DNA of 64,000 bases from Escherichia phage phiC120. Shown piece after piece: positions 5,144 to 57,919 of the stretch. Position 1 is the stretch's first letter. Each line of letters starts with the position of its first letter. The stretch lies in sequence record KY703222. One strand, written 5' to 3'. The translations under genes were made by a program, and so were the position numbers. Under the pieces are notes generated by a model. The model was not told where the DNA came from. It saw nothing but the letters and a program-made list of their open reading frames with translations, and ran no database searches.

Positions 5144-5390
5144 AAAGCTCGACTACCTCTTCGTTTTCAGCTTCAAATTGGTCACGAGCATCTTTATGAT
5201 AAAGAGCTAACAAACGATTAAACATTTTTCCATCAACGCCAAGCTCTTCTTTAGCACGAGTACGAATGTCTTTAATCAGTTCATTATAACCAGAAATTTT
5301 AAGTTTGTTATCGGAAGCTTCCTTGACTAGTTTAGCCAGTTCTTCACCATGCACATCTTGATTAAATTCAACTGCTTCTTTCTTAGCCAT
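5121..5390 (-). CDS. dsbA: dsDNA-binding protein DsbA (89 aa from ATG 5390)
   Basis: ATG at 5390 has GAGGT RBS and gives the T4 size of 89 aa; ORF track start at 5408 would overlap rnh. Confidence 0.7.
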   Translation of the reverse strand: MAKKEAVEFNQDVHGEELAKLVKEASDNKLKISGYNELIKDIRTRAKEELGVDGKMFNRLLALYHKDARDQFEAENEEVVELYDTVFTK

Positions 5391-27114: not shown

Positions 27115-28215
27115 TTACGCTGTGAAGATTTTATCCCACATCGCAACAACTGCATCTCGGTTATACTTCTTCCATACTGCTTCAGCACGTTTAACTCGAG
27201 CTTCGTACGTGTCAGTGAATTCTAATACAGCTTTTGTGTAAAGCGCAACTACTTCTTTCTTAGGAGTAGAGGAATCAATTTCTACACGCACAGTATCTGG
27301 GTCATATTCGAATGTCGCATGCGGATAATCCTTAAAAACTAACTGAATTACAGGGACACCTTTAGAAATGGCTTCAATAGAACTATTCTCTACCGTACCT
27401 GTGTCAGGACACGTATTAATAAGTGCTTTAGCTGTTTTAAGACGTTCCATAATTTCACTGTGTGGAGCATCAATAATAACAGGATACTTAGCCGGTGGTG
27501 CCCATTTGCTTGGACAATAACCAATACCATTTTCGCCTAGTGCTTTAATCGCTTCAAGAGCAACATCAGTACGACGCATTTTAGTGTCATAACGTTGTGC
27601 ACTAATAATCAGATCAGTCGCCGGAAGAACTTCAGGTTTCTCATTCAAACAAATAACCGGATAATCTTCGGCTTCAAACAACGGATTTGCTCGCCAATAA
27701 TCATAATCAATTTTGTCAGTCAGACCTGAAGTCATATAACAATATTTGCGTTCAAATTCACGGAAGGCTTTAGTAGGAGCATAACTCTTACCACCGTTCT
27801 TATGAATTTGAATAGTCTGGTCCCAAATTTGAACAATGCCACGAGATACCGGTTCAAATGGTGTTGCCATAAAATTCTTATGAACTTTAGAGAGGCCCGC
27901 GTCTTTAATTGCCTGAACAGTTAGTTTGGTCGGTTCCATTGTAACAACGAAATCGTACTCATTAATGCCGGCTAGTTCAACAATCTTACGAGCCATAGTA
28001 TAACTCATACCTAGACTGAATTTAGTCAGATGACCAACAGGATGATGATTAACCTTCCAATCACCAAATGTGTCATTATCAAAACCGATATAATCAATAT
28101 CGGCACCGATAGAAACTAAATATTTCAACACATTTAAATGTACTGCTTCAAGACCACCTTGTACACGTTCAGGATTAAATGGGACTGCACGAGATGGGAT
28201 AAACATAACTTTCAT
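27115..28215 (-). CDS. GT-B fold glycosyltransferase (candidate DNA hmC glycosyl/arabinosyl transferase)
   Basis: 366 aa; C-terminal TGTVENSSIEAISKGVPVI resembles the GT4 catalytic signature; no counterpart at this position in T4. Confidence 0.7.
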   Translation of the reverse strand: MKVMFIPSRAVPFNPERVQGGLEAVHLNVLKYLVSIGADIDYIGFDNDTFGDWKVNHHPVGHLTKFSLGMSYTMARKIVELAGINEYDFVVTMEPTKLTVQAIKDAGLSKVHKNFMATPFEPVSRGIVQIWDQTIQIHKNGGKSYAPTKAFREFERKYCYMTSGLTDKIDYDYWRANPLFEAEDYPVICLNEKPEVLPATDLIISAQRYDTKMRRTDVALEAIKALGENGIGYCPSKWAPPAKYPVIIDAPHSEIMERLKTAKALINTCPDTGTVENSSIEAISKGVPVIQLVFKDYPHATFEYDPDTVRVEIDSSTPKKEVVALYTKAVLEFTDTYEARVKRAEAVWKKYNRDAVVAMWDKIFTA

Positions 28216-28241: not shown

Positions 28242-28259
28242 AAGCTCCCGAAGGAGCTT
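28242..28259 (-). terminator. Hairpin (AGCTCC-UUCG-GGAGCT) overlapping the HNH gene stop
   Basis: 7-bp stem, CTTCGG loop, followed by ATTTTAATTTT. Confidence 0.45.
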
Positions 28260-29055
28260 AGGACATCCAACACATTTTATAACCTTTGCAGGTTCTGTTA
28301 GGATTATTTAATGCTTTCAATATATTAGAAGACCCTATACCTAAATACTCCCTTAATTCATAAAGATAGTTAAAATCAATAGTTTCACCTGTTTTTACAC
28401 TTGTGATTCTTATAGGCCTTCTTTCATATTTAGATTTATACAACTCTCTAGTCTTAGCTTTAGTTTCTTCTGACCTAGGAGTGTATGGTTTAAATCCTTT
28501 TGTTTTAAATGTTTCCATTCTTGATTTAGTTATTTTATCCTGATGTTCTTTTGTTTTTACAGGTGCTTTTCGCCCATTCTCCCAAGATAACTTGTTGGCC
28601 TGTATTATTTTATCTATTGCTTCTTGCGTATGAGTTTTACCATAAAATGGATTTAATTCGCCTATACGTTGTGAAGCAATATGTGACATTAATTCTCTTG
28701 TTGCTTTAGTATGTTTTTTACCTTTAAATGGGTTGCCATTTTTAGCAATCCATTCTTTCATAAATCTAGAGTGCTCTTTAGAGAATTCTTGTTTAAGCCA
28801 ATCATAATCTCTAGAATTTCTAGCTCCTATGTAAAAAGCTCTAATAGCCATAAGCATAGAACGGTTCTTATGAATTTTATAAAGCAATAAATGGGCGATA
28901 AAATGCTCTCTAGGGGTCATTTTAACTAGATTTGATTTAGCATTACTCCCGCCCATAGATTTAGGCAAAATATGGTGAGTTTCAGTATAATTAGGAATAG
29001 TGCTGCGGTTTTTAGCCGCAGCGATAAGTTTATCATAAATTTTACGATAATTCAT
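28258..29055 (-). CDS. HNH homing endonuclease (Mob-like, with NUMOD3-type repeats)
   Basis: HNH core TETHHILPKSMGGSNAKSNLVKMTPREH; repeated NPF(K/Y)GK(K/T)HT motifs; ATG at 29055 overlaps gene 39 stop (TAATG); ORF track start 29070 is TTG. Confidence 0.8.
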   Translation of the reverse strand: MNYRKIYDKLIAAAKNRSTIPNYTETHHILPKSMGGSNAKSNLVKMTPREHFIAHLLLYKIHKNRSMLMAIRAFYIGARNSRDYDWLKQEFSKEHSRFMKEWIAKNGNPFKGKKHTKATRELMSHIASQRIGELNPFYGKTHTQEAIDKIIQANKLSWENGRKAPVKTKEHQDKITKSRMETFKTKGFKPYTPRSEETKAKTRELYKSKYERRPIRITSVKTGETIDFNYLYELREYLGIGSSNILKALNNPNRTCKGYKMCWMS

Positions 29056-30875
29056 TATCCTAGCATCCAATCTTTACGGAGTTCAGGGTCGTTACCCATG
29101 AGCATTTCAAATAGTTCTTTCCAATTTTCAGGAAGTTTAACTACGTCGTACACAGGGTTTTGAATCATTTCTTTATATTCATCTCGCTGAAGTGAGCCCA
29201 ATCCCTTGATGTATCGAATACTATGCTTAGGAAGCGTATCTTTAGCTTCTTCATACTCAGCTACAGTATAAAACCATTTTTGAGATTTGCCAATTTGTGC
29301 AATAATTACAGGTGTTTTAACAAAGCGAATACGTCCTTGTTCAAACAATTCAGGCCAATTACTAAAGAAAGCAAGCAAAGCCGGATAGATACTTCCAAGA
29401 CCGTCATGATCGGCATCGGTCATAATTGCAATATTACGATAGTTCGTATTCTCTGCCTTTTCACCAAGAATAAGACCTGTGATAGCACAGATATCGAATA
29501 ACTCTTTGTTCTTCATCATATCAGCATATGACATACCCCAGCTATTCATCACCTTACCACGTAATGGGAATCCGCCGTGTAGTTCACGGTCACGAACATC
29601 AATGAGATATCCAATTGCCGAATCACCTTCTGTTAAGAACAATGTCGTATCTGCATCTTTACCGCATTGGTTAGCTTTAATATGCTTATGAACCTTAGCT
29701 TTAGTTGCCTTTTTAGCTGCTTTAGTTTCTGCAGCCTTTTCTGCTGCCAATTTACGAGCTAATGCTGCTTCAACAATAGGCATAATCAAGGATTCGTTTT
29801 TAAGAAGTGCCTGAGCAATTTTCTTAGCATCTAATTGGATATGATTACGAATATCACCATACGTTGACGTTAAACGTTCTTTAGTCTGAGAATCAAAACG
29901 CATGTTGCTCATGTCTCTAATAAACATCAACATTGTGAGGCATTCTTTAACACGAGCTTTAGTGACTTCAATACCCTTATATTTCTTTTTAATACCCGGC
30001 AAAAGATGTTCGCAGATATCATCCATTACACATTCAACATGATGACCACCATTTTTAGTATGGATGTTATTCACATAAGTTAAATGACGGAAGCCATCTG
30101 GTGATGTTGTGAATGCTATAGAGACTTTATCATTTTCTTGAATGATGTTATCTTCACCAAATTGTTTAGCAAATCGTTTAAAATTACCATCAACCTTTTT
30201 ACCATTAAATGTGAACTTGATATCAGGATAAACGACTGCCAATGTTTGAAGTCGGTCTAAAGTAATATCTAAATAAATTTGAGATAAATTATGCTCTTCA
30301 AATGAAGTGAAATCAGGAGTGAAGATTACTTTAGTGCCTTTACCTTTAGATTTCTTAGAAGACCATGATTTGTTTTCCATTCCGTTTGAACAGTTAACAG
30401 TGATTTCATTTTCGCCATCTGACGTGATGCCTGTAAACAACGTAGAGAAGATATTAGTTAAACTACTCCCGACGCCGTTCATACCACCAGTCTTGCGTTC
30501 AGAATCATCACCAAAGTTACCACCGGCCTTTGGAATAGTCCAGGCTGCTACAGGACCAGGAATTTGTTCACCTGTTTGGTCGGTAACTAAACCTTGAGGA
30601 ATACCACGTCCGTTATCTTCCACCGAAACTTGATTATTTTTAATTTGCACATCAATTTTATTTGCAAACTTAAATGATGTACGAATAGCTTCATCAACCG
30701 AGTTGTCAATAATCTCATCGATTAATTTAACCAGACCAGGAACATATTCAACTTGTTGATATTTACCAAACAAAAAACGCTCGTGGGCTTCTTTAGCAGA
30801 AGAACCAATATACATGCCACTACGTTTCTTAATATGTTCTACATCTGACAGTACCTTAATTTCATTTTTAATCAT
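29055..30875 (-). CDS. 39: DNA topoisomerase II large subunit, unsplit (T4 39 and 60 equivalents in one ORF)
   Basis: 606 aa; GyrB-like ATPase and TOPRIM motifs; no separate gene 60. Confidence 0.93.
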   Translation of the reverse strand: MIKNEIKVLSDVEHIKKRSGMYIGSSAKEAHERFLFGKYQQVEYVPGLVKLIDEIIDNSVDEAIRTSFKFANKIDVQIKNNQVSVEDNGRGIPQGLVTDQTGEQIPGPVAAWTIPKAGGNFGDDSERKTGGMNGVGSSLTNIFSTLFTGITSDGENEITVNCSNGMENKSWSSKKSKGKGTKVIFTPDFTSFEEHNLSQIYLDITLDRLQTLAVVYPDIKFTFNGKKVDGNFKRFAKQFGEDNIIQENDKVSIAFTTSPDGFRHLTYVNNIHTKNGGHHVECVMDDICEHLLPGIKKKYKGIEVTKARVKECLTMLMFIRDMSNMRFDSQTKERLTSTYGDIRNHIQLDAKKIAQALLKNESLIMPIVEAALARKLAAEKAAETKAAKKATKAKVHKHIKANQCGKDADTTLFLTEGDSAIGYLIDVRDRELHGGFPLRGKVMNSWGMSYADMMKNKELFDICAITGLILGEKAENTNYRNIAIMTDADHDGLGSIYPALLAFFSNWPELFEQGRIRFVKTPVIIAQIGKSQKWFYTVAEYEEAKDTLPKHSIRYIKGLGSLQRDEYKEMIQNPVYDVVKLPENWKELFEMLMGNDPELRKDWMLG

Positions 30876-49166: not shown

Positions 49167-50066
49167 TTATTCCTCGATTACGACATCTTCATATTTAGGT
49201 ATATTATACGGTGAAGAAATTAAAGCATTAAAGTAGATGAACTCACCAAGACCTGGATGAAATACTTCTTCAGGATTTTCGAAATATTGAATCTTCGGAC
49301 GTCCTTTAAGAATTTGATAGTACTCAGTTTTAGTTGGTTTAAAAATTCGAATCAACGCTTCTTCAGGATACTTATTTCTGTCGAAGCTATTATTTGGATC
49401 GGTTATATAAAGCGGTTGGCCTAATTGAATTGCACATTCAACCACTTGTTCAAAACGATAGCACGGGTCACTAATTCGAAATGGATGAAAAATACCATCT
49501 AGATGAATAGGAGCCAAATCACCTACAAGACGCTGCATGATGGAAGGACGTATAACTTTCTGCGTTACGATAATCTTATTACCATCTGCACCTGCGTTAA
49601 CCAGCACTTCTTTTTGACGTTCATTCAACACAGTAGTTTGAAGTGAACGATTAACCGACAACATGTCGGTTTTTAAGAATTCGTCAATATAAAAACGTGG
49701 TTTATTAGGGTCTGCAGTGATATTGAAATTGAATTCTACATCAAAAGCGCCGTCATATCCAGTGATATCTGTGATTAGAAAATCACAATCATAATAAGCA
49801 ATTAATGAATCAACCACAAATTCATTTTCAGACCAGAAATATTTACGGGTGTTATACGCGTTATCTTTATACCATAATGGAACAAACTTAAATTCTGGGA
49901 AAAGACGTTCACATTCTTTAATATCAGATGCATTACGTGGATATGTAATCACATCACCTGGATTAGCACGGTGCAAATGAAGTTGGAAGTTGCCATCCTT
50001 AAGGATAGCATACTGTCCAGTTTCATAAGACCGCATACTCAAGATTGGTACGCGGAAAATAGCCAT
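49167..50066 (-). CDS. Hypothetical protein (299 aa); candidate modification enzyme in the beta-gt position
   Basis: ORF track; TAATG coupling with gene 42; no recognisable motif. Confidence 0.45.
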   Translation of the reverse strand: MAIFRVPILSMRSYETGQYAILKDGNFQLHLHRANPGDVITYPRNASDIKECERLFPEFKFVPLWYKDNAYNTRKYFWSENEFVVDSLIAYYDCDFLITDITGYDGAFDVEFNFNITADPNKPRFYIDEFLKTDMLSVNRSLQTTVLNERQKEVLVNAGADGNKIIVTQKVIRPSIMQRLVGDLAPIHLDGIFHPFRISDPCYRFEQVVECAIQLGQPLYITDPNNSFDRNKYPEEALIRIFKPTKTEYYQILKGRPKIQYFENPEEVFHPGLGEFIYFNALISSPYNIPKYEDVVIEE

Positions 50067-50782
50067 TAGTCAAGGAATCCTTTAACATAATCAAAATCAC
50101 GTTCAAACACATGGGCACTTACCATGGTATGAGTATAATCACCAACTTCTACACCACATTCGTTAGCGATATAATGAAGTAATTTTCCTTGGAGATAAAA
50201 ATCCAACTGCATAACAACAGCACAGTTCTGGGAACGCATATGACAGTGGGTATAAAGCTTACCATCACGAATATAATAAGTCACTGAGTCAGTACATGGA
50301 TATTCAAGTGTTTCGTCTGAATCAAGCAAAGCCTGATCAGAACTTTCTAGAATTTGGAACACAACTCTTCGAGAGTTAGGCTTCTCTTTAAGTTCTTTTA
50401 GAAGAGCTGGTAATTGGGCCGCAATGCGAGGACCATAGAAAGTGTTGAAGTTCGCCGGCAAAACATCTGATTTTGGTTTAGAAATAAATTTAGCGACATT
50501 AGGATATGCCTTAAACGCTTCTTCTGCGTTGGTACCACCAGAAATCATAAACTTCCAGAAGTCTTCGGCATATTCATAAGAGATGCGATTAATACGTGGG
50601 TCGGTCATTTTGAATGATGATGGAGTGTCAACAACTACGGTCATAGACCCAATTTCATTACAACGTCCAATACGAGAATCAGTTACGAATTCTGGGTTTT
50701 CTAAAATTTCACGATTGACTGCTTTAAATGCGGTTTGAAAATCTGCGGCTTTGATATATTTCATTGTGTTATGTTTTCCCAT
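50066..50782 (-). CDS. 42: dCMP hydroxymethylase gp42 (thymidylate-synthase fold)
   Basis: 238 aa (T4 246); TS-like C-terminal pattern CTDSVTYYIRDGKLYTHCHMRSQN...HVFERDF; GAGGT RBS. Confidence 0.8.
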   Translation of the reverse strand: MGKHNTMKYIKAADFQTAFKAVNREILENPEFVTDSRIGRCNEIGSMTVVVDTPSSFKMTDPRINRISYEYAEDFWKFMISGGTNAEEAFKAYPNVAKFISKPKSDVLPANFNTFYGPRIAAQLPALLKELKEKPNSRRVVFQILESSDQALLDSDETLEYPCTDSVTYYIRDGKLYTHCHMRSQNCAVVMQLDFYLQGKLLHYIANECGVEVGDYTHTMVSAHVFERDFDYVKGFLD

Positions 50783-50824
50783 GTTTACCTCAATACAATT
50801 TATTATATACTCAATTCGTAAAGC

Positions 50825-51064
50825 TTATTTGAATTTCTTGACAATGTTGATATAACGTAAAGCTTCAGCATCGATACTTCCAAGAACACTATGAAGAAAT
50901 GCATCAGCGTAGTATTCCAATTGAACAGGTTCTTTAATCACTTTAGCCGCTTTAGTTTCAAAAAGGCCCATCAGGGCCTTTTTAAGAATTTGTTCATTAG
51001 TGTTCAGTTTCATAGTCAAAATCTCTTCATTAAGTTGGTGGTTAAAAGTTTTTCTAGAAATCAT
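50825..51064 (-). CDS. Hypothetical protein (79 aa)
   Basis: ORF track; ATGA overlap with upstream gene. Confidence 0.4.
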   Translation of the reverse strand: MISRKTFNHQLNEEILTMKLNTNEQILKKALMGLFETKAAKVIKEPVQLEYYADAFLHSVLGSIDAEALRYINIVKKFK

Positions 51065-52221
51065 TCCGGGTATCTCAAAGCGTCATCAGAGTTAGTTATA
51101 TCAATAATAGATATAGAGTTTTCTGCTAACCCGTTTTTAGATAATTGACGTTTATAATATCTTTCACAATATGTACACGTCGTCCCGCAGATTTCATTAG
51201 CACAATCGAAATCTGGATGTCTGAACCACCTTTTTTCTAAAAAGCCATCTAACAAAGAGGTTTCAATATTTACTGTATGTGAAAACTCAGTCTCATTTTC
51301 AAGAGTGAAAATAGTCTCTAAAGGCTTCCACAGTTCTAACAAATTACCTTCAAACTTTTCAGAAGCGTATGCTTCAAGAACTTTCAAAATGTAGTCTGTG
51401 CTACCTGTACGTCCTGAAACTTTGAATTGAGTGATACCAATATCATTATAAAGTTTCAAATCTTGAGGACGAACAAAACGAGTTCTCAACCAGTTAAATG
51501 GGTCTGTATCACGAGCTTTAATACAGTGCTGCATAGGATATCCGTTTAAGGATTTAGCATCATCAGCGGTAACATCAGTACTATGGAAAATATAGCAAGA
51601 GTCACGATAGCTACAATGTGTTGTATACCCTTTACCAGCATTAGAACAGAACTCATTTACAAGAACTTCAAATATTATATTGTTCTTATTGCAAAACTCT
51701 GCTGCACGCTTCAGGAAAGAAACTGAACGGTTCTTATGAATTCCACAGCAGACCTTTTTGATATTATACTGGTCATGCAAGTATTTGATTTGAGTTACAG
51801 CATCGACATGTAGAATTGTTGAAACTTCAATCTCAATGTCTTTATTGACTTCACGAACAATTTCCATAACAACAGGGTTAGCGATAGTAATACGCCATAC
51901 GCCTATTGACCAAAGATACTGAACATAATCCTGAATAGCTTTCTTCTTCCACTCAACTAGTTCTCTTTTTGAACCAGGATTTATCGTGTTGAGTGTATAG
52001 TTAAAGCAAATACCTAATTCGTTACAACGTTTAACGTAATCTTCTAACATCTTTTTGTCAACGTCAGGAAGCCTAAAATCAGGTCTGGCTGCTACAAAAG
52101 CCATTTCTCTTGTAGAGCCATATACTTCGTTTATCAAGCTATTAGGATAAGTTTTATTGAGCTCTACGATTTTATCGAGAAGAGCTAAATCAAAATTCGT
52201 TCCGATTTTAAAAGTATTCAT
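51061..52221 (-). CDS. Cys-rich hypothetical protein (386 aa from ATG 52221; ORF-track start 52236 is GTG); candidate enzyme of the modification cassette
   Basis: C-terminal CANEICGTTCTYC (C-x4-C-x3-C-x2-C) plus other conserved Cys; no confident fold assignment. Confidence 0.45.
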   Translation of the reverse strand: MNTFKIGTNFDLALLDKIVELNKTYPNSLINEVYGSTREMAFVAARPDFRLPDVDKKMLEDYVKRCNELGICFNYTLNTINPGSKRELVEWKKKAIQDYVQYLWSIGVWRITIANPVVMEIVREVNKDIEIEVSTILHVDAVTQIKYLHDQYNIKKVCCGIHKNRSVSFLKRAAEFCNKNNIIFEVLVNEFCSNAGKGYTTHCSYRDSCYIFHSTDVTADDAKSLNGYPMQHCIKARDTDPFNWLRTRFVRPQDLKLYNDIGITQFKVSGRTGSTDYILKVLEAYASEKFEGNLLELWKPLETIFTLENETEFSHTVNIETSLLDGFLEKRWFRHPDFDCANEICGTTCTYCERYYKRQLSKNGLAENSISIIDITNSDDALRYPE

Positions 52222-52278
52222 TTTTTTGCATCTCACGTTAATTGATGCGATGGTTTTTTGCAGGTCTTACTTAAATTA

Positions 52279-52665
52279 TTATAGATTCGGTTTATATGAT
52301 TTAAATGTTTCGAATTCGCCTTTATTCATAAGAGCTTTGAATTCGTCAGGACGCATAGCTTTGTCGTCGATAATCCAATCATATACTGGTTTATGTGTTA
52401 GCAAATTATGGTACTTCAAGCCAATGTTTGCCAAGTTCTGAATCAGACTTGGGAGAATGTCAATTGCTATACGACCAGGACCTACTGACTTCATACCGCG
52501 AGCAGTGTAAAGCGTTATGGTATGCCCTGCATCATACAGGGCATTAATGGCAGTCACCATTTCGACGTCCGGTTTGAAGTTCACGTAATCACGATTGTTA
52601 TTCCACTCTGTTATACAATCATCGACGTCAAAACAAAGATTAAGCATGTTTTCTACACGGTGCAT
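52279..52665 (-). CDS. HAD-superfamily phosphatase-like protein (about 128 aa)
   Basis: N-terminal motif I FDVDDCIT (DxDx[T/V]); start uncertain (ATG 52665 overlaps upstream stop as TAATG; alternative ATG 52680). Confidence 0.5.
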   Translation of the reverse strand: MHRVENMLNLCFDVDDCITEWNNNRDYVNFKPDVEMVTAINALYDAGHTITLYTARGMKSVGPGRIAIDILPSLIQNLANIGLKYHNLLTHKPVYDWIIDDKAMRPDEFKALMNKGEFETFKSYKPNL

Positions 52666-54350
52666 TAGATTCGTTCCCATTGATGAGTGATATCGCCACC
52701 GATTGGACGATAGGAAACACCAGTTTCTTTATCAGTTAGTACCCATTTACCAGGATTTTTTGTAATCAGAGTAGCCGTTACAGGTTCTGCTACGTCATAA
52801 CTAATAGAGCCATCTTGAAGTACACGGCCCATGTTACGTAATTGCTTAGTCAGAAGTTCCATACCTTTATAATATGCGGCCACCGCTTTAAGTGGATTAT
52901 TCTTGAAATAACCACCTAATGCAATCCAGATAATTGCCACTGCCAAATGATGATACTCGTTAAACGAACTCATCTTTCCATATTTGTAAACTAATGGATT
53001 GATGTTAATAGTCACATTACAAGTTGTTTCATCAATAGTAAACTGGCCCCAGGTCGGATTAGCGTTGAATTCATCATAACCTGAAACAGCATAAAGCACT
53101 TTAGCTTCATCATACAATTTTGGCCCGTAAATCTTGGTTTCGCCAAAATATCCACGAGGGTCGATAAACTTGACTTCGCCGTTATCAGTAATCATAGTAT
53201 TACTGAAGTTCGGGTCACCGTGAATAACAGAGTACTGTCCCTGAGAACGGTTATGATAACGAATAAGATGTTCTAAAGCTTGTTTCAACATTGGCTTCAG
53301 ACGTCCAATCTTAGTGTAGTTCACGTGTGTGATTTTACCAAATGAATCAATCAATGGCTGAATGCTTTCACAACGATCAATAACTTTCGTATAGAACTCT
53401 TTAGTGAAATCACGACGAACAGTTTCAGGACTTACAAAATAAGTGTCTGTACTGAATTTCAGTGCATCTAAAATTGCATCAACAATTTGTGGACGAGCAA
53501 GACTTGATTTGGATTTAATATATTCAAATGCCGGCTTACCTTTAATACGTTCCATTTCAAAATTATTTTCATTTACCGAAACTAACTGAGGAACCGAATC
53601 TGATTTCACTTTCAAATACCATGAAATCTCATCTTTTTGAAGAGCTCGACCTTGTTCGGTTAACGCGAATTTAGTTACAGTTTCTTCGCCAATTTCAACT
53701 GCATTAAAACTACGATTAAGTTCACGAACTTCATGAGCTTTTTCAAGTTTAGGCATATCACCTAAATCAATTAGATTCATAAGCTCTGATTTATTGAATG
53801 CGCTGCTGTAAAGGAATTCTACGAAATCACGTCCTTTGCAGTATTCATGAATTTCCTCATCAGTAGAACCCATATAGAATTCCCAGTCTTTGAACTGATA
53901 AATTCCTACAACATTACCGCCTGTTGCACCTACATTAGTGATATTTTCACCGTCGAAATTATATCGACATTCGTCACCCTTAACATAGATTGCGTTAACA
54001 TTCCAAGACCATGAACCAAAATCAGGAATAATATCGCACCAGTTAACAACTACGTTATGGCCGTCTAAATCTTTATGTAATTTAGCAAGAGCATAAGCAG
54101 AACCATACGCTTCATCAACTGTACGAATAGTCACATTGAACCCTTCTTGCTCACAATAAGCTCGAACAGTTTCAGCAAATTTTGAATGAACTACTACAAT
54201 AATTTCATCTGCGCCAAGGTCAGAATAAATTGTATACAAATTGCTCAGAATAGTGTCTTGTTTATAGTTAACAAGCACCTTAGGAATATGGTGAGTAATT
54301 GGATATAAACGAGTTGCCAATCCGGCACCAAGAATAACAGCTTTTTTCAT
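52665..54350 (-). CDS. Bifunctional sugar-1-phosphate nucleotidyltransferase (N-terminal) / APH-fold anomeric sugar kinase (C-terminal)
   Basis: 561 aa; N-terminal MKKAVILGAGLATRLYPIT (G-x-G-T-R-L-x-P-x-T as in RmlA-type NTP transferases); C-terminal HGDPNFSN...KFIDPRG kinase catalytic/DFG-like loops; GAGGA RBS. Confidence 0.7.
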   Translation of the reverse strand: MKKAVILGAGLATRLYPITHHIPKVLVNYKQDTILSNLYTIYSDLGADEIIVVVHSKFAETVRAYCEQEGFNVTIRTVDEAYGSAYALAKLHKDLDGHNVVVNWCDIIPDFGSWSWNVNAIYVKGDECRYNFDGENITNVGATGGNVVGIYQFKDWEFYMGSTDEEIHEYCKGRDFVEFLYSSAFNKSELMNLIDLGDMPKLEKAHEVRELNRSFNAVEIGEETVTKFALTEQGRALQKDEISWYLKVKSDSVPQLVSVNENNFEMERIKGKPAFEYIKSKSSLARPQIVDAILDALKFSTDTYFVSPETVRRDFTKEFYTKVIDRCESIQPLIDSFGKITHVNYTKIGRLKPMLKQALEHLIRYHNRSQGQYSVIHGDPNFSNTMITDNGEVKFIDPRGYFGETKIYGPKLYDEAKVLYAVSGYDEFNANPTWGQFTIDETTCNVTININPLVYKYGKMSSFNEYHHLAVAIIWIALGGYFKNNPLKAVAAYYKGMELLTKQLRNMGRVLQDGSISYDVAEPVTATLITKNPGKWVLTDKETGVSYRPIGGDITHQWERI

Positions 54351-54391
54351 GTTGAAGTCCTCATTGGTAAGTAGGTGTATTGTACACTATT

Positions 54392-54535
54392 CTAGTTAAA
54401 GCATTCATACTTTGCCTGTAGACCAATCATAATCCATCCAATTACAAGTGTTGGAATCATTACTGGAGCCGTTAAGCTCCAGTAGATAGTCATGACAAGC
54501 ATCAATAGTAAAAGTCCTATTGTTATTGCTTTCAT
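54392..54535 (-). CDS. Small membrane peptide (47 aa)
   Basis: Own translation MKAITIGLLLLMLVMTIYWSLTAPVMIPTLVIGWIMIGLQAKYECFN; ATGA overlap with the SIS gene. Confidence 0.35.
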   Translation of the reverse strand: MKAITIGLLLLMLVMTIYWSLTAPVMIPTLVIGWIMIGLQAKYECFN

Positions 54536-55167
54536 TGTTCGCCTCGTAACATGGCACCTAGTGCACCGCCAGGGTGGAACTTAAGGAAGTCATTAGAGGT
54601 AAATCCACGTTCAGACGAAAGGTTGATAGCAAACGTATCGATAAGCGCTAACAACAATGTAGTGGACATAGTCGGAGCTAAAGAGTTCTCGTCAACTTCT
54701 ACCGCGATACCGGTACAGAACGTATAATCAAAAAGAGCTTCGTATTCTTGTGGAATGTCAGGGTTACAATGTAACAGAATCTGTTTAACCTGAGGACGAA
54801 TCATACGAAGATGTTTAGCAACACCTATCATTTCTTCAGTCTTACCAGAACGACTGATGTGAACTAATACATCATTAGGTGCAATAAATCCTGCATCCCC
54901 ATGAGAATAATGCCCAGTGTTCAAATACATGCTAGGAATACCTAGTGAAGCAAAAGTCTCGGAAGCTTTAGTTGCGATATTAGCATTCTTACCAACACCT
55001 GTAATAATTACACGACTTTCATAATTACTCAGTCCAGGGCGGCGAAGAGTTTCAAGAATAGCATTATATCGGGCAGGGTTTTGACTAATTACTTTGGCCA
55101 TAGCGGCCAAAGAAGAAGCTTGTTTTATGATTGCGTCAATAGCGATAGTAATAGGAGTAGTTTTCAT
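54532..55167 (-). CDS. D-arabinose-5-phosphate isomerase, SIS domain only (KdsD/GutQ-like)
   Basis: 211 aa; aligns by eye to E. coli KdsD SIS domain (GVGK...IA.K...TFAS.G.PS......HGD.G...P.DV...ISRSG...E...) and ends in the KdsD hallmark FHPGGALG. Confidence 0.8.
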   Translation of the reverse strand: MKTTPITIAIDAIIKQASSLAAMAKVISQNPARYNAILETLRRPGLSNYESRVIITGVGKNANIATKASETFASLGIPSMYLNTGHYSHGDAGFIAPNDVLVHISRSGKTEEMIGVAKHLRMIRPQVKQILLHCNPDIPQEYEALFDYTFCTGIAVEVDENSLAPTMSTTLLLALIDTFAINLSSERGFTSNDFLKFHPGGALGAMLRGEQ

Positions 55168-55207
55168 ATTTCTCTCATTTAATTAGTTTACCGTCCATGG
55201 CATTATA

Positions 55208-57919
55208 TCAAAAATCGAACATATCGAATAGAGATGCTTTCTTCTCGTAATCGAGTTTCGCTGCTGATGTGAATCCTTCAAGTGGTTTAATAAATGTCTT
55301 CTCAAGGAGAACAGTGTAGTCCATCCAATGAAGTACGTCGTCTTTAATTAAATCTGTGATTTCAGTACCAGAAGGCCATGCGATACATTTATCACCGAAT
55401 GGGTTTCCTTCACGTAAAGGCAGAACATATACTTTTTCACCTTCTACAACTTGTGGAGCATCAATATTACCTTTGATAGCCCGGTTATACGTCAGAATTC
55501 CACGAATATGGAACGGACATTTGGGACCAGGGAATCCACCTACATCATATTTAGCAATGTTATTCGCAGAAGATACCGACGCGATGCTAATATAATTCAA
55601 TTGACGGAATTCTTTTTCAAACTCTTTAAAATATTCTTGTAATGATTCTTCACCTTCTTGAAGCATACGACGAATACATTCTTTAAGAGCTTTCTGTACC
55701 GCTTTAGGAGTTGAAGATTTCTGTGTTTCGAGACCCATGATTTTGAGTTTAGGCTCAGCGTAACGAGTACCTTCCATATCCCACACGTTTAATGCATAAC
55801 GTTTCTTACCAGTCCAGAATCCGCCAATACCTTTAGAACCAAGCGGAGGACCAGCGATAGCTTCTCGGTCCATGAACATTAAGTGTTGTTTATTGTTCAT
55901 GTATTCACACATTTCACGGAAACCTTTATCAATAGCTGGTTCCATACGTTCACGTGCGAACTTATCTAAGAAGTCTACCCAATGGTTGGTATCACGGAAT
56001 TTAGATTCACCAACCTTATCGATAATTTTATCAGCAGATACGTAAATAGAGTCTGTATCACCATAAAGAACGAAAGCTTCACCTTCTGTACCACAAACTT
56101 CATTCAGATATTCATTAACTTTACGTTCAATCCACTGTAAAGCCATTTGCCCGAATGTTGTGATTGCAGTAGCATTACGCAAATCGTAATAACGGAACCA
56201 TACGTTACCAAGTGCACCATAAAGCGAGTTGATAAGCAATTTACGGTTAATTTGTGCAGTCATACCTGCAACTTCAGTACGTTGAGCTCTAAACAACATT
56301 TCATTAAGAGATTTAGCAGACAACTTTTTAATCTTTTCTTTAATCTCATCGCTGAAGTCGAAACGATAATCAACATCTAATGGTTCGTCAACAGAAAGAT
56401 TAGGATTATGCAATGCCTCTTTAATTATTTCACCATTACGTTGAGCTGCAAGCATGTAACCTTTATGTTCTTTACGCTGATTAAAGACCTTAGTGATTTC
56501 AGTTGGAACTACACCGTCACGGTCTTTATAATACATCATGCCGTTAGGAGAGCAACTGTACACATCTGAAGGACGTTCAGCGATTGCGTTAATATAATCA
56601 TGCAGTGGAGCTACTTTAAACGTTCCTGCTATTGTTTCCGGGCTAATATTCACTTGGCGAATAATACTTGGATACAGAGACGTAAGGTCGAAACTCATTA
56701 CATATTTGTATCGATTTGGAATAGGTTCCTTAACAAAAGCGCCAGGATAAGGTTGAACCGGGTGAGAACGACCTTGTGGAATCACCTTGTTTTGTTCTTT
56801 AAGGCTATTAAAAATAATAGCATCCCAAGTTTTAATTGGACTGAACACAGATTGAATCTGAATTTTAGCATAATAACCCATGTCCAAGCTCAAGTTGATG
56901 AACTGACGCTTAGAATCAATTTGCAATACACGATACACGTCGATAATGTTATAAGAAATATATCGTTGGTGATTGCTTTCACGAAGCTTAGAAATAGGGC
57001 CGTCATATTTCAGTTTACCAATGTTCAATTCAAATTCTGAAATGTAATCCAGAGAATACGACGGTTGATTGGTAAAAGAGAATTTTTTGTAAAGGTCAAT
57101 GTAATCAAGAACAGAGATACCGAACAATGTAATGATTTCACGAGAACCATACATGTTTTCGATAACTTTAACACGAGTTTTACGATGCGGTGATAAACGT
57201 TTCGCAGTAGATTCGCCAAAAATATTCTTGATTCGGTTATACACATATGGAATATCAAATGACTCAACGTTCCATCCAGTCAAAATGACAGGAGTTTTCT
57301 GTTGCCAGAAGTTGAGATATTCCATCAACAATTCTTTTTCGTTATCGAACGGCATATAAATGATTTTATCGATAATTTCAGATGGAACTTCATCACCACC
57401 TTGTTCTTGAAGCTTAGCCGCAATTTCGATAGACCATTCTTCTACATTACCATATGGAGAATTCAATAGATCAAATACGTAGAACCTGTCGTCAATTGAG
57501 TCATAATGGGTGATAGCATCAATCGGATGTTTTGCTTGTGACGGCTCAGGGAACCCGTCTGGAGATGTTACTTCGATGTCGAAGTTAGCCACACGAATTT
57601 TTGTATGGTCGTATTTGATTTCATAGTTATAAGTGTCAGACAAATACGCCAATTTGAAATCGTCCATGCCAAGTGCTTCAAGTCCGATATCTTCCATGCG
57701 TTTAATCCATTGGGAGGCATCACGCATATTAGCGAACAACTTACGAGTACACGGCTTACCGTAGATATCGAAATATTTCGTAGCCTGACTTTCTGGACAA
57801 TGAGCAAACAGTGATGGTTTATATTCTACTTCACGAGTACGTTCACGGCCGTTAGAATCGATGTAACGTTCAAAAATTGAATCACCAATCTGTTCAACCG
57901 TTAAGTAAAATTCTTTCAT
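55208..57919 (-). CDS. 43: DNA polymerase gp43 (B family), RB69-type
   Basis: 903 aa; matches the RB69 gp43 sequence as I recall it, including exonuclease motifs FDIEV and YNIIDV. Confidence 0.98.
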   Translation of the reverse strand: MKEFYLTVEQIGDSIFERYIDSNGRERTREVEYKPSLFAHCPESQATKYFDIYGKPCTRKLFANMRDASQWIKRMEDIGLEALGMDDFKLAYLSDTYNYEIKYDHTKIRVANFDIEVTSPDGFPEPSQAKHPIDAITHYDSIDDRFYVFDLLNSPYGNVEEWSIEIAAKLQEQGGDEVPSEIIDKIIYMPFDNEKELLMEYLNFWQQKTPVILTGWNVESFDIPYVYNRIKNIFGESTAKRLSPHRKTRVKVIENMYGSREIITLFGISVLDYIDLYKKFSFTNQPSYSLDYISEFELNIGKLKYDGPISKLRESNHQRYISYNIIDVYRVLQIDSKRQFINLSLDMGYYAKIQIQSVFSPIKTWDAIIFNSLKEQNKVIPQGRSHPVQPYPGAFVKEPIPNRYKYVMSFDLTSLYPSIIRQVNISPETIAGTFKVAPLHDYINAIAERPSDVYSCSPNGMMYYKDRDGVVPTEITKVFNQRKEHKGYMLAAQRNGEIIKEALHNPNLSVDEPLDVDYRFDFSDEIKEKIKKLSAKSLNEMLFRAQRTEVAGMTAQINRKLLINSLYGALGNVWFRYYDLRNATAITTFGQMALQWIERKVNEYLNEVCGTEGEAFVLYGDTDSIYVSADKIIDKVGESKFRDTNHWVDFLDKFARERMEPAIDKGFREMCEYMNNKQHLMFMDREAIAGPPLGSKGIGGFWTGKKRYALNVWDMEGTRYAEPKLKIMGLETQKSSTPKAVQKALKECIRRMLQEGEESLQEYFKEFEKEFRQLNYISIASVSSANNIAKYDVGGFPGPKCPFHIRGILTYNRAIKGNIDAPQVVEGEKVYVLPLREGNPFGDKCIAWPSGTEITDLIKDDVLHWMDYTVLLEKTFIKPLEGFTSAAKLDYEKKASLFDMFDF

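Follow-up and report, generated by a model that had tools for sequence, protein, structure and literature searches.

A U32-family protein in the arabinosyl-5-hydroxycytosine cluster of Escherichia phage phiC120: a candidate prephenate-dependent hydroxylase

Described systems and the phiC120 locus

The DNA of phage RB69 contains mono- and di-arabosylated cytidine in which the sugar is ether-linked to 5-hydroxycytosine (Lee et al. 2026, PMC13326640), and arabosylated 5-hydroxy-deoxycytidine is present in the virion DNA of both RB69 (PMC13326640) and phage NP (PMC13390438). [The 2018 assignment of the base as arabinosyl-hydroxymethylcytosine (ara-hmC) has been revised, and is called erroneous in PMC13390438.] The 5-hydroxy-dCMP is made by gp48, which has bound flavin and takes the oxygen from 18O2 (PMC13326640). 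A cluster of this type is present in Escherichia phage phiC120 (sequence record KY703222), and the subject here is one of its products, a Cys-rich protein of the U32 family. The DNA analysed, referred to as the window, is a stretch of 64,000 nucleotides (nt), and the cassette in question lies at its positions 50,783 to 55,207. It is proposed that the U32 protein of the window is an O2-independent, prephenate-dependent C5-hydroxylase that feeds the arabinosylation pathway. On analysis of its family, neighbours and distribution, the chances of this are put at even or very slightly better.

Formation of 5-hydroxycytidine in rRNA requires the U32 protein RlhA, together with prephenate and Fe-S biogenesis (PMC5727448). 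For 5-hydroxyuridine (ho5U) there are redundant routes, one via the U32 protein TrhP with prephenate and the other via TrhO with O2, and obligate anaerobes lack the O2 route (PMC6599085). In anaerobic ubiquinone synthesis prephenate is the oxygen donor for UbiU/V (PMC10990095). The wider proposal, which is given an even chance, is that a widespread phage U32 family makes 5-hydroxy-pyrimidine deoxynucleotides without O2, with prephenate donating the oxygen. It would do so as one half of a dual pathway in phages of facultative hosts, and as the sole route, together with a kinase and glycosyltransferases, in phages associated with anaerobe lineages, with chorismate mutase or a DAHP synthase-chorismate mutase fusion providing the prephenate.

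The window is from a Mosigvirus. Its 4.4 kb cassette is 99% DNA-identical to that of Escherichia phage phiE142, and since the same 4.4 kb recurs in ~150 Mosigvirus genomes at 95–99% (about 97.7%) identity, it is not a chance pattern. The proteins of the window are 95–100% identical to their RB69 and HY126 counterparts, and the region is with high confidence an RB69/HY126-type (Mosigvirus) cluster for arabinosyl-5-hydroxycytosine DNA hypermodification. That the cassette supplies an NDP-arabinose donor for modified cytosine, as a sequence-only reading of the window had proposed, is borne out by the same identities. As described, the cassette adds nothing new, having already been published: ORF055c and ORF53_52c were proposed as UDP-arabinose genes, and the fusion protein was shown as a single open reading frame (ORF) of 561 residues, by Thomas et al. 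2018 (PMC6024577), and characterisation of the cluster followed in 2025–2026 (Mahler et al. 2025; He et al. 2026; Lee et al. 2026). The U32 hypothesis is apparently unpublished. No paper linking U32, chorismate or prephenate with these phages was found in the literature searched, outside which lie He et al. 2026 and Mahler et al. 2025.

The U32 protein

The genes of the window that bear most directly on the proposal are these:

51061..52221, minus strand: Cys-rich U32-family protein, RB69 gp50 equivalent, 386 amino acids (aa) from the ATG used by homologs
50066..50782, minus strand: predicted ThyA-superfamily 5-hydroxy-dCMP synthase, RB69 gp48 equivalent, with a match to PDB 9IQC/9IR2
49167..50066, minus strand: DNA arabinosyltransferase 1, RB69 gp46:47 equivalent, intact here at 299 aa
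48617..49165, minus strand: thymidylate-kinase-like (Tmk-like) nucleotide kinase, RB69 gp45 equivalent, PHROG 761 'thymidylate kinase' at E=2e-45

The ORF of the Cys-rich protein as called mechanically has a GTG start at 52236, upstream of the ATG of the homologs. The sequence-only reading had noted its length and richness in Cys, both of which hold, and had given it no function; it is now seen to be a member of Pfam Peptidase_U32 (PF01136; 42.2 bits against a cut-off of 22.4). A search of PDB with its sequence gave no match. Its AlphaFold2 (AF2) model (pLDDT 91.3) is a TIM barrel, and the top PDB match of the model is the U32 protein 5D88 (E=3e-7).

Ten Cys are invariant across 48 homologs of the U32 protein, including those of a C-terminal CX4CX3CX2C motif. 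Its hhalign comparison with RlhA gives E=1.4e-5 over 205 columns at ~20% identity and pairs C203/C209 with the essential C169/C176 of RlhA; further, its 'GYPMQHC233' resembles 'GYPTLC232' of UbiU. Judged from these residues, the protein likely ligates an Fe-S cluster. It has 386 aa where RlhA has 653, and the long C-terminal extension of the latter is absent.

Distribution in T4-like phages and linkage to chorismate mutase

The U32 protein is encoded in 220 phage records, the hosts of which are all Enterobacterales or Shewanella. Across T4-like genera it is 82–89% identical where the AfhE-type fusion protein encoded nearby is only 43–72% identical, which points to either very strong constraint or recent horizontal spread of a module. 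All 22 of the T4-like U32 loci examined also have the ThyA homolog (20 in Enterobacterales phages and 2 in Shewanella phage Thanatos-2), while among Acinetobacter phages there are 57 records with AfhE and none with U32. The pattern is one in which phages of Acinetobacter, a strict aerobe, carry the ThyA type alone, both types occur together in phages of facultative hosts, and uncultivated phage contigs have U32 only.

An AroQ chorismate mutase gene directly follows that for U32 in Erwinia, Klebsiella and Shewanella phages, with a 4-nt overlap in all three, and the products score 33–45 bits in Pfam CM_2 (cut-off 27). The product of chorismate mutase is prephenate. In Proteus phage PM2 the chorismate mutase gene (46.8 bits) is parted from that for U32 by a homing-endonuclease gene, and in Shewanella phage Thanatos the U32-chorismate mutase pair has moved as a unit. 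Phage chorismate mutase was seen in 51 phage records, and in every one its gene adjoins that for U32 or for the ThyA homolog; it is in 18 of the 22 T4-like U32 loci examined, the four that lack it being of Mosigvirus and Marfavirus.

Divergent viral loci

Metagenomes contain in abundance a U32 family of ~360 aa with 46–58% identity to the window protein, and its context there includes a Tmk-like kinase, dCMP deaminase, dUTPase, UDG and DNA polymerase III alpha. The census took in 31 divergent viral loci that encode this U32 subfamily, using iterated hidden Markov models (HMMs) and counting neighbours within 10 kb. BLAST with the Tmk-like and HAD proteins of the window missed the divergent counterparts; the kinases were recovered by iterated HMMs, and for the KdsC-like HAD proteins a DCDGVxTDG motif was the sole means of recognition. 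A homolog of arabinosyltransferase 1 is near U32 in 23 of the 31 loci and a Tmk-like kinase in 21; AfhE-like fusions are at 16, SIS isomerases at nine and chorismate mutase domains at six. A D169N ThyA homolog was found within 10 kb of U32 in none of the 31. The ThyA homolog at the single locus where one was present (L031) was considered as a 5-hydroxy-dCMP synthase and rejected, as it is an ordinary thymidylate synthase with L143/D169/N177.

Three of the four HMM-labelled chorismate mutase proteins scanned have CM_2 fused to a DAHP-synthase-family domain (Pfam), and the fourth (L029) has the DAHP-synthase domain only. The fusions, with C-terminal chorismate mutase, are at 7302-8357 of L043, 8411-9433 of L040 and 11079-12197 of L054, and stand beside a KdsC-like HAD protein and U32. 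They could boost shikimate flux to prephenate. Alternatively, their PF00793 domain could be a Kdo8P-synthase-like enzyme that uses arabinose-5-phosphate.

One contig of 43,970 nt, IMGVR_UViG_3300045988_074298 (L037/L074/L075/L083), was rebuilt in full. It has kinase, glycosyltransferase and U32 genes in the order Tmk-GT-U32, a weak TAGT-like second glycosyltransferase, a dUTPase/dCTP-deaminase-like gene and UDP-galactopyranose mutase. No ThyA-superfamily gene was found in it (best tblastn E 0.29, against 1e-5 to 1e-40 in positive controls). Rhizobium phage RL38J1 has a D169N ThyA homolog, kinase, glycosyltransferases and mutase, and the contig differs from it only in having U32 in the place of ThyA. 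From its gene content the contig may make galactofuranosyl-hydroxy-pyrimidine DNA.

Seven U32 homologs are in species-representative genomes, coming from metagenome-assembled genomes (MAGs) of Erysipelotrichales, an unclassified Bacillota, Romboutsia (two), candidate division BRC1 and Tannerella, and from an isolate of Phocaeicola faecalis. Four of these taxa (Erysipelotrichales, Romboutsia, Tannerella and Phocaeicola) are lineages of anaerobes.

A recurrent set is seen in five U32 loci (L067, L068, L069, L012 and L065, which are BRC1, Tannerella, Phocaeicola and Bacillota contigs). It consists of a GP88-family protein, a methyltransferase-domain protein, a protein of ~267 aa and U32. By Pfam, a guanylate-kinase-like domain is fused to a SAM methyltransferase in L067, L068 and L069, L012 has the methyltransferase only, and L065 was assigned by size, its genes having the same sizes as those of the set. 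The set may be a route to 5-methoxy-pyrimidine nucleotides. On a 466-kb AT-rich metagenomic contig (L011) the U32 gene is directly after that for dCMP deaminase and also near UDG, a Tmk-like kinase and a 1615-aa PHP/PolIII-alpha protein; there the substrate of U32 might be dUMP rather than dCMP.

Predicted role of the U32 protein and alternatives

If the protein is a hydroxylase it would be an Fe-S enzyme that, in the absence of O2, forms 5-hydroxy-dCMP or else hydroxylates C within DNA. Because the kinase neighbour recurs, the nucleotide, dCMP, is favoured over DNA as its substrate. In this phage the prephenate would come from host PheA/TyrA, since Mosigviruses are without the chorismate mutase carried by most other U32-bearing genera. 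Were prephenate used stoichiometrically, roughly 6x10^4 would be needed per genome copy (~168 kb, 37% GC), times the burst size, and a demand of that order would account for the carriage of chorismate mutase by phages. We infer that the U32 gene and the 79-aa ORF coupled to it are a separate module inserted into the cassette.

Several points weigh against a prephenate-dependent hydroxylase. Hydroxylase activity in vitro has yet to be demonstrated for any U32 protein (PMC10990095). The choice of cluster-binding Cys is ambiguous, as MAFFT aligns the Cys motif of the U32 protein differently from hhalign, with Gly at the second Cys position, and the hhalign match of the U32 profile to UbiU alone is weak (probability 4%). 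A published table labels gp50 'sugar or heterocycle reductase', without discussion in the text (PMC13326640), and BASEL phage records label the protein 'enzyme involved in UDP-arabinose biosynthesis'. Dhakaviruses (JS98), which are also E. coli phages, have the arabinose cluster without U32, so that U32 is not required for the modification and the correlation with host oxygen is imperfect. The window itself is without chorismate mutase. The DAHP synthase reading of the metagenomic fusions rests on their chorismate mutase part, because PF00793 also covers Kdo8P synthase, a user of arabinose-5-phosphate. The hosts of the divergent contigs are deduced only from the seven binned genome contigs.

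It is unlikely that the U32 protein acts on the sugar side, tailoring the arabinose donor as a reductase, an epimerase or some other enzyme. The position of its gene between those for the phosphatase and the hydroxylase would suit such a role, as would the labels 'sugar or heterocycle reductase' (PMC13326640) and 'putative enzyme involved in UDP-arabinose biosynthesis' and the TIM barrel fold, which is common among sugar enzymes. However, in the account of He et al. 2026 given in PMC13326640, AfhE and AfhF yield UDP-arabinose from arabinose-5-phosphate, with no U32 step mentioned, and the phage isomerase supplies that substrate. Acinetobacter as well as JS98-type phages have the arabinose cluster but not U32, and Maestro is reported with arabinosylated 5-hydroxy-deoxycytidine (PMC13326640). 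Conversely, U32 is kept in phages that have neither AfhE nor arabinose-5-phosphate isomerase but do have a kinase and a glycosyltransferase, and what accompanies it steadily is chorismate mutase rather than an enzyme of sugar metabolism.

Similarly doubtful, if anything slightly more so, is that the protein hydroxylates host or phage RNA (tRNA U34 or sites like rRNA C2501) and tunes translation during infection, with no role in DNA modification. Every characterised nucleic-acid function of a U32 protein is on RNA, and the prephenate link would be expected in this case too. Yet its conserved neighbours in unrelated phages are genes for a nucleotide kinase, a DNA glycosyltransferase, either dUTPase or dCMP deaminase, and replication; the protein does not have the long extension seen at the C-terminus of RlhA (386 versus 653 aa); and the host already encodes TrhP and RlhA. 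That it is a genuine collagenase-like peptidase, as the Pfam, PHROG and GenBank names have it, is scarcely credible: the name is historical, characterised members are tied to hydroxylation with a Cys motif that binds 4Fe-4S (PMC10990095, PMC5727448), and ten invariant Cys in a nucleotide-metabolism context are unlike a protease.

Supply of UDP-arabinose and the acceptor base

The remaining genes of the cassette, with its boundary gene and a distant gene of related function, are as follows:

54532..55167, minus strand: SIS protein, single-domain arabinose-5-phosphate isomerase (plausible), RB69 gp55 equivalent, 211 aa, C-terminal end ...FHPGGALGAMLRGEQ
54392..54535, minus strand: 47-aa hydrophobic peptide, RB69 ORF054c; PHROG 3610, function unknown
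52665..54350, minus strand: nucleotidyltransferase/kinase fusion, AfhE-type, RB69 gp52:53, 561 aa, with GAGLATRLYPIT near the N-terminus and HGDPNFSN...IDPRG in the C-terminal half
52279..52680, minus strand: HAD-like protein, AfhF-type, RB69 gp51, 133 aa, with DVDDC
50825..51064, minus strand: 79-aa helical protein, RB69 gp49; PHROG 8601, function unknown
55208..57919, minus strand: DNA polymerase gp43, the boundary gene, 903-aa ORF, in synteny with RB69 gene 43
27115..28215, minus strand: probable second DNA arabinosyltransferase, RB69 ORF003c/gp3 type, 366 aa, ~23 kb from the cassette

The SIS protein matches Pfam SIS (E=1e-9), PHROG 5670 'arabinose 5-phosphate isomerase' (E=3e-116) and, in PDB, 3ETN (E=1e-24) and KdsD 2XHZ (E=2e-18), and is 98–99% identical to its RB69 and HY126 counterparts. 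3ETN, a single-domain SIS protein, has been described as an arabinose-5-phosphate isomerase (PMC13326640). The NCBIfam KdsD/GutQ models match only the SIS part (105 bits, the cut-off being 505), and by comparison with them the 211-aa protein has no CBS domains. It plausibly works like an arabinose-5-phosphate isomerase, yet is not a KdsD equivalog. 

The sequence-only reading had identified the fusion of a nucleotidyltransferase with an APH-fold kinase and the small HAD-type phosphatase, and correctly so. In the former, Pfam NTP_transferase matches at residues 3-99 (E=7e-10) and there are weak kinase-fold matches at residues 354-409; it matches PDB LicC 1JYK (E=2e-5) and is 96% identical to AfhE of HY126 and 98–100% to its RB69 counterpart. 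The HAD protein matches PDB 9IQW (E=2e-87) and 1XPJ (E=7e-10) and, below its cut-off, NCBIfam 'capsule biosynthesis phosphatase' (E=5e-13), and is 99% identical to AfhF of HY126. The activities of both are assigned by this identity to HY126 AfhE/AfhF, which have been biochemically characterised according to PMC13326640. As He et al. 2026 is recounted there, AfhE is an arabinose-5-phosphate kinase as well as a UDP-arabinose pyrophosphorylase, and AfhF is a Mg-dependent phosphatase that converts arabinose-1,5-bisphosphate to arabinose-1-phosphate.

The pathway steps, the reaction of the ThyA homolog and the DNA glycosylation have been shown elsewhere, on near-identical proteins. In the window, the SIS isomerase would divert ribulose-5-phosphate to D-arabinose-5-phosphate, the C-terminal APH-fold kinase of the fusion would phosphorylate C1 of this to give arabinofuranose-1,5-bisphosphate, the AfhF-type HAD enzyme would strip the 5-phosphate, and the N-terminal nucleotidyltransferase of the fusion would turn the resulting arabinose-1-phosphate into UDP-D-arabinofuranose. 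Because the kinase acts before the phosphatase, free arabinose would be no intermediate.

[Klebsiella phages Marfa and CP-p-KP-21072 and Proteus phage PM2 (L002-L004) have AfhE, HAD, kinase, U32 and the ThyA homolog, and these three clusters are without a phage arabinose-5-phosphate isomerase. Presumably they rely on host KdsD/GutQ for arabinose-5-phosphate.]

The flanking gene, read earlier as dCMP hydroxymethylase (42), encodes a protein 99% identical to RB69 gp48 and 25% to T4 gp42, and it matches PDB 9IQC/9IR2 with E=8e-161. Asn at the position of E. coli ThyA residue 169 is diagnostic for 5-hydroxy-dCMP synthase activity (PMC13326640). The window protein has E143, C146, N169 and D177, which is the published pattern of that synthase, while T4 gp42 has D143, D169 and D177 at equivalent sites. 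By this signature the flanking gene is a predicted flavin/O2-dependent 5-hydroxy-dCMP synthase and not a dCMP hydroxymethylase. The acceptor base is, on the same signature and the ether-linked 5-hydroxycytosine of RB69 (PMC13326640), predicted to be 5-hydroxycytosine and not the hydroxymethylcytosine first supposed. The ThyA homolog would convert dCMP to 5-hydroxy-dCMP with flavin and O2, and after replication the glycosyltransferases (49167-50066 and 27115-28215) would glycosylate the 5-hydroxycytosine of the DNA with one or two arabinose units.

The sequence-only reading had the order otherwise, with arabinose-5-phosphate first converted to free arabinose, an anomeric kinase then giving arabinose-1-phosphate, and the NDP-arabinose used to glycosylate hydroxymethylcytosine. 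The domain content is compatible with this, Table 1 of PMC13326640 still reads 'dephosphorylates Araf5p to Ara', and ara-hmC was the name of the base in the 2018 paper. It is nevertheless very unlikely. As recounted in PMC13326640, AfhE of HY126 makes the 1,5-bisphosphate first and AfhF then removes the 5-phosphate (the proteins being 96–99% identical to those of the window); the ether link to 5-hydroxycytosine was established by NMR and mass spectrometry (PMC13326640); the ara-hmC assignment is the one that PMC13390438 calls erroneous; and the D169N signature is present in the window.

The 299-aa glycosyltransferase is 99–100% identical to both RB69 fragments (gp46 and gp47) and to its HY126 counterpart, its assignment as arabinosyltransferase 1 being that in Table 1 of PMC13326640, and the Tmk-like kinase is 99% identical to RB69 gp45. 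The 366-aa ORF at 27115-28215 has no Pfam match. By tblastn it has counterparts of 95–100% identity in Mosigviruses, at about 2.5–3.6 kb in the genome, and of ~43% identity in 55 Acinetobacter phages, which have two copies each. It sits between rIIA and the topoisomerase gene, matching a description in PMC13390438, and is probably the second DNA arabinosyltransferase, of RB69 ORF003c/gp3 type. Between this ORF and the topoisomerase gene is an ORF of 270 aa (28258-29070, minus strand) that starts with TTG and contains a NUMOD3 motif, which suggests a homing-endonuclease-like gene.

Layout of the region and the two small ORFs

The six ORFs listed in the sequence-only reading, with their lengths and quoted motifs, are all present. 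They are encoded on the minus strand, flanked by the ThyA homolog (50066-50782) on one side and by DNA polymerase (55208-57919) on the other. The comparison which that reading makes with T4, in which imm.1 and imm alone stand between genes 43 and 42, also holds. The translational coupling that it saw throughout applies in part. Three pairs of ORFs overlap (SIS/47-aa by 4 nt, fusion/HAD by 16 nt and U32/79-aa by 4 nt), but the remaining junctions of the cassette are gaps of 40–57 nt.

Matches to consensus only were seen in the spacers. MotA-box-like and -10 motifs, in the style of T4 middle promoters, are at 54405 and 50827 (minus strand), in spacers of ~41 nt that precede the AfhE-type gene and the ThyA homolog, and TATAAT-like hexamers are in two further spacers (55165-55215 and 52219-52285). 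These motifs suggest that the genes form four groups, each of two or three genes under a promoter of its own. The window was also searched for a motif of anaerobic ribonucleotide reductase, and none was found.

The 47-aa peptide had been counted as a member of the cassette. However, T4 has an unannotated counterpart of 57% identity in its 42-imm spacer (tblastn E=4e-10; 5231-5320 of T4 piece L072), and in JS98 the counterpart also adjoins imm. The peptide looks like a small membrane ORF conserved in the core of T4-like phages and, because T4 has it, is probably not sugar-pathway cargo.

The 79-aa ORF overlaps the U32 stop codon by 4 nt. It was considered as a diverged chorismate mutase, and this was rejected: it has no Pfam match even at E=10, BLASTP gives E=0.16, and in Yersinia phages (including TG1) it co-exists with a real chorismate mutase, the order there being U32, 79-aa homolog, chorismate mutase. 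Foldseek with its low-confidence single-sequence AF2 model (pLDDT 72) gave nothing (E>3). The Winklervirus chorismate mutase keeps a remnant of the N-terminus of the 79-aa protein. The ORF is a third gene and not a degenerate chorismate mutase. It is intact in the window, frameshifted in the HY126 record (6501-6739 of L006) and divided in two in several further Mosigvirus records, and where split it is either dispensable in the laboratory or affected by homopolymer sequencing error.

Significance

The phages concerned infect gut bacteria, while the sole characterised route to 5-hydroxy-dCMP needs O2. As they also carry a dCTPase (listed in PMC13326640), they would lack a usable C nucleotide without O2. 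A prephenate-dependent U32 hydroxylase would, if real, explain how anaerobic replication might be possible for such phages, why phages carry chorismate mutase, and how glycosylated hydroxy-pyrimidine DNA could arise in uncultured phages associated with anaerobe lineages. It would also be the first hydroxylase of the U32 family to act on a small soluble substrate, and a phage U32 protein acting on dCMP offers a simple assay for the question of in-vitro hydroxylation by U32 proteins (PMC10990095).

Comparison with known systems

The closest systems are the gp45-gp55 region of RB69 and the Afh cluster of HY126, which have the same genes in the same order, the D169N signature and 95–100% protein identity. 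In the corrected RB69 sequence the fusion and the glycosyltransferase are intact ORFs, as in the window. There is essentially no difference, and the window is a member of this group, save that the 79-aa ORF intact here is frameshifted in HY126.

The strategy of T4 gp42 and the alpha- and beta-glucosyltransferases is the same, namely modification of dCMP followed by glycosylation of DNA after replication, and the genome position is also the same. T4 gp42, however, keeps D169, is 25% identical and uses folate where flavin and O2 serve here. Because T4 uses host UDP-glucose, it needs no sugar-nucleotide cassette.

With the ADP-heptose pathway (GmhA, HldE and GmhB) the cassette shares the logic of an SIS isomerase, an anomeric kinase that gives a bisphosphate, a HAD enzyme that removes the distal phosphate, and nucleotidyl transfer, and kinase and transferase are fused in both HldE and the AfhE-type protein. 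The phage sugar differs in being a pentose, the nucleotide is UDP, and the kinase has the APH fold, that of HldE being of ribokinase fold. The analogy has been noted from structural matches to GmhB (PMC13326640).

For the U32 protein, RlhA (which acts on C2501 of E. coli 23S rRNA) provides the same proposed chemistry, cytosine C5-hydroxylation, along with a shared U32 domain and, in the hhalign alignment, counterparts for C169/C176. It is unlike the phage protein in its sequence (~20% identity), its own C-terminal domain and its RNA substrate, in a ribosome precursor. TrhP/TrhO and UbiU-V/UbiI-H-F are pairs in which a U32/prephenate route stands beside an O2-dependent one, and the phage U32 likewise co-occurs with an O2-dependent enzyme for what is predicted to be the same C5-OH product. 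The distribution of those pairs (aerobe-only, both, anaerobe-only) and their link to prephenate supply are as in the phages. What sets the phage proteins apart is their predicted substrate, a deoxynucleotide or DNA, and the subfamily's (~360–390 aa) own invariant C-terminal CX4CX3CX2C.

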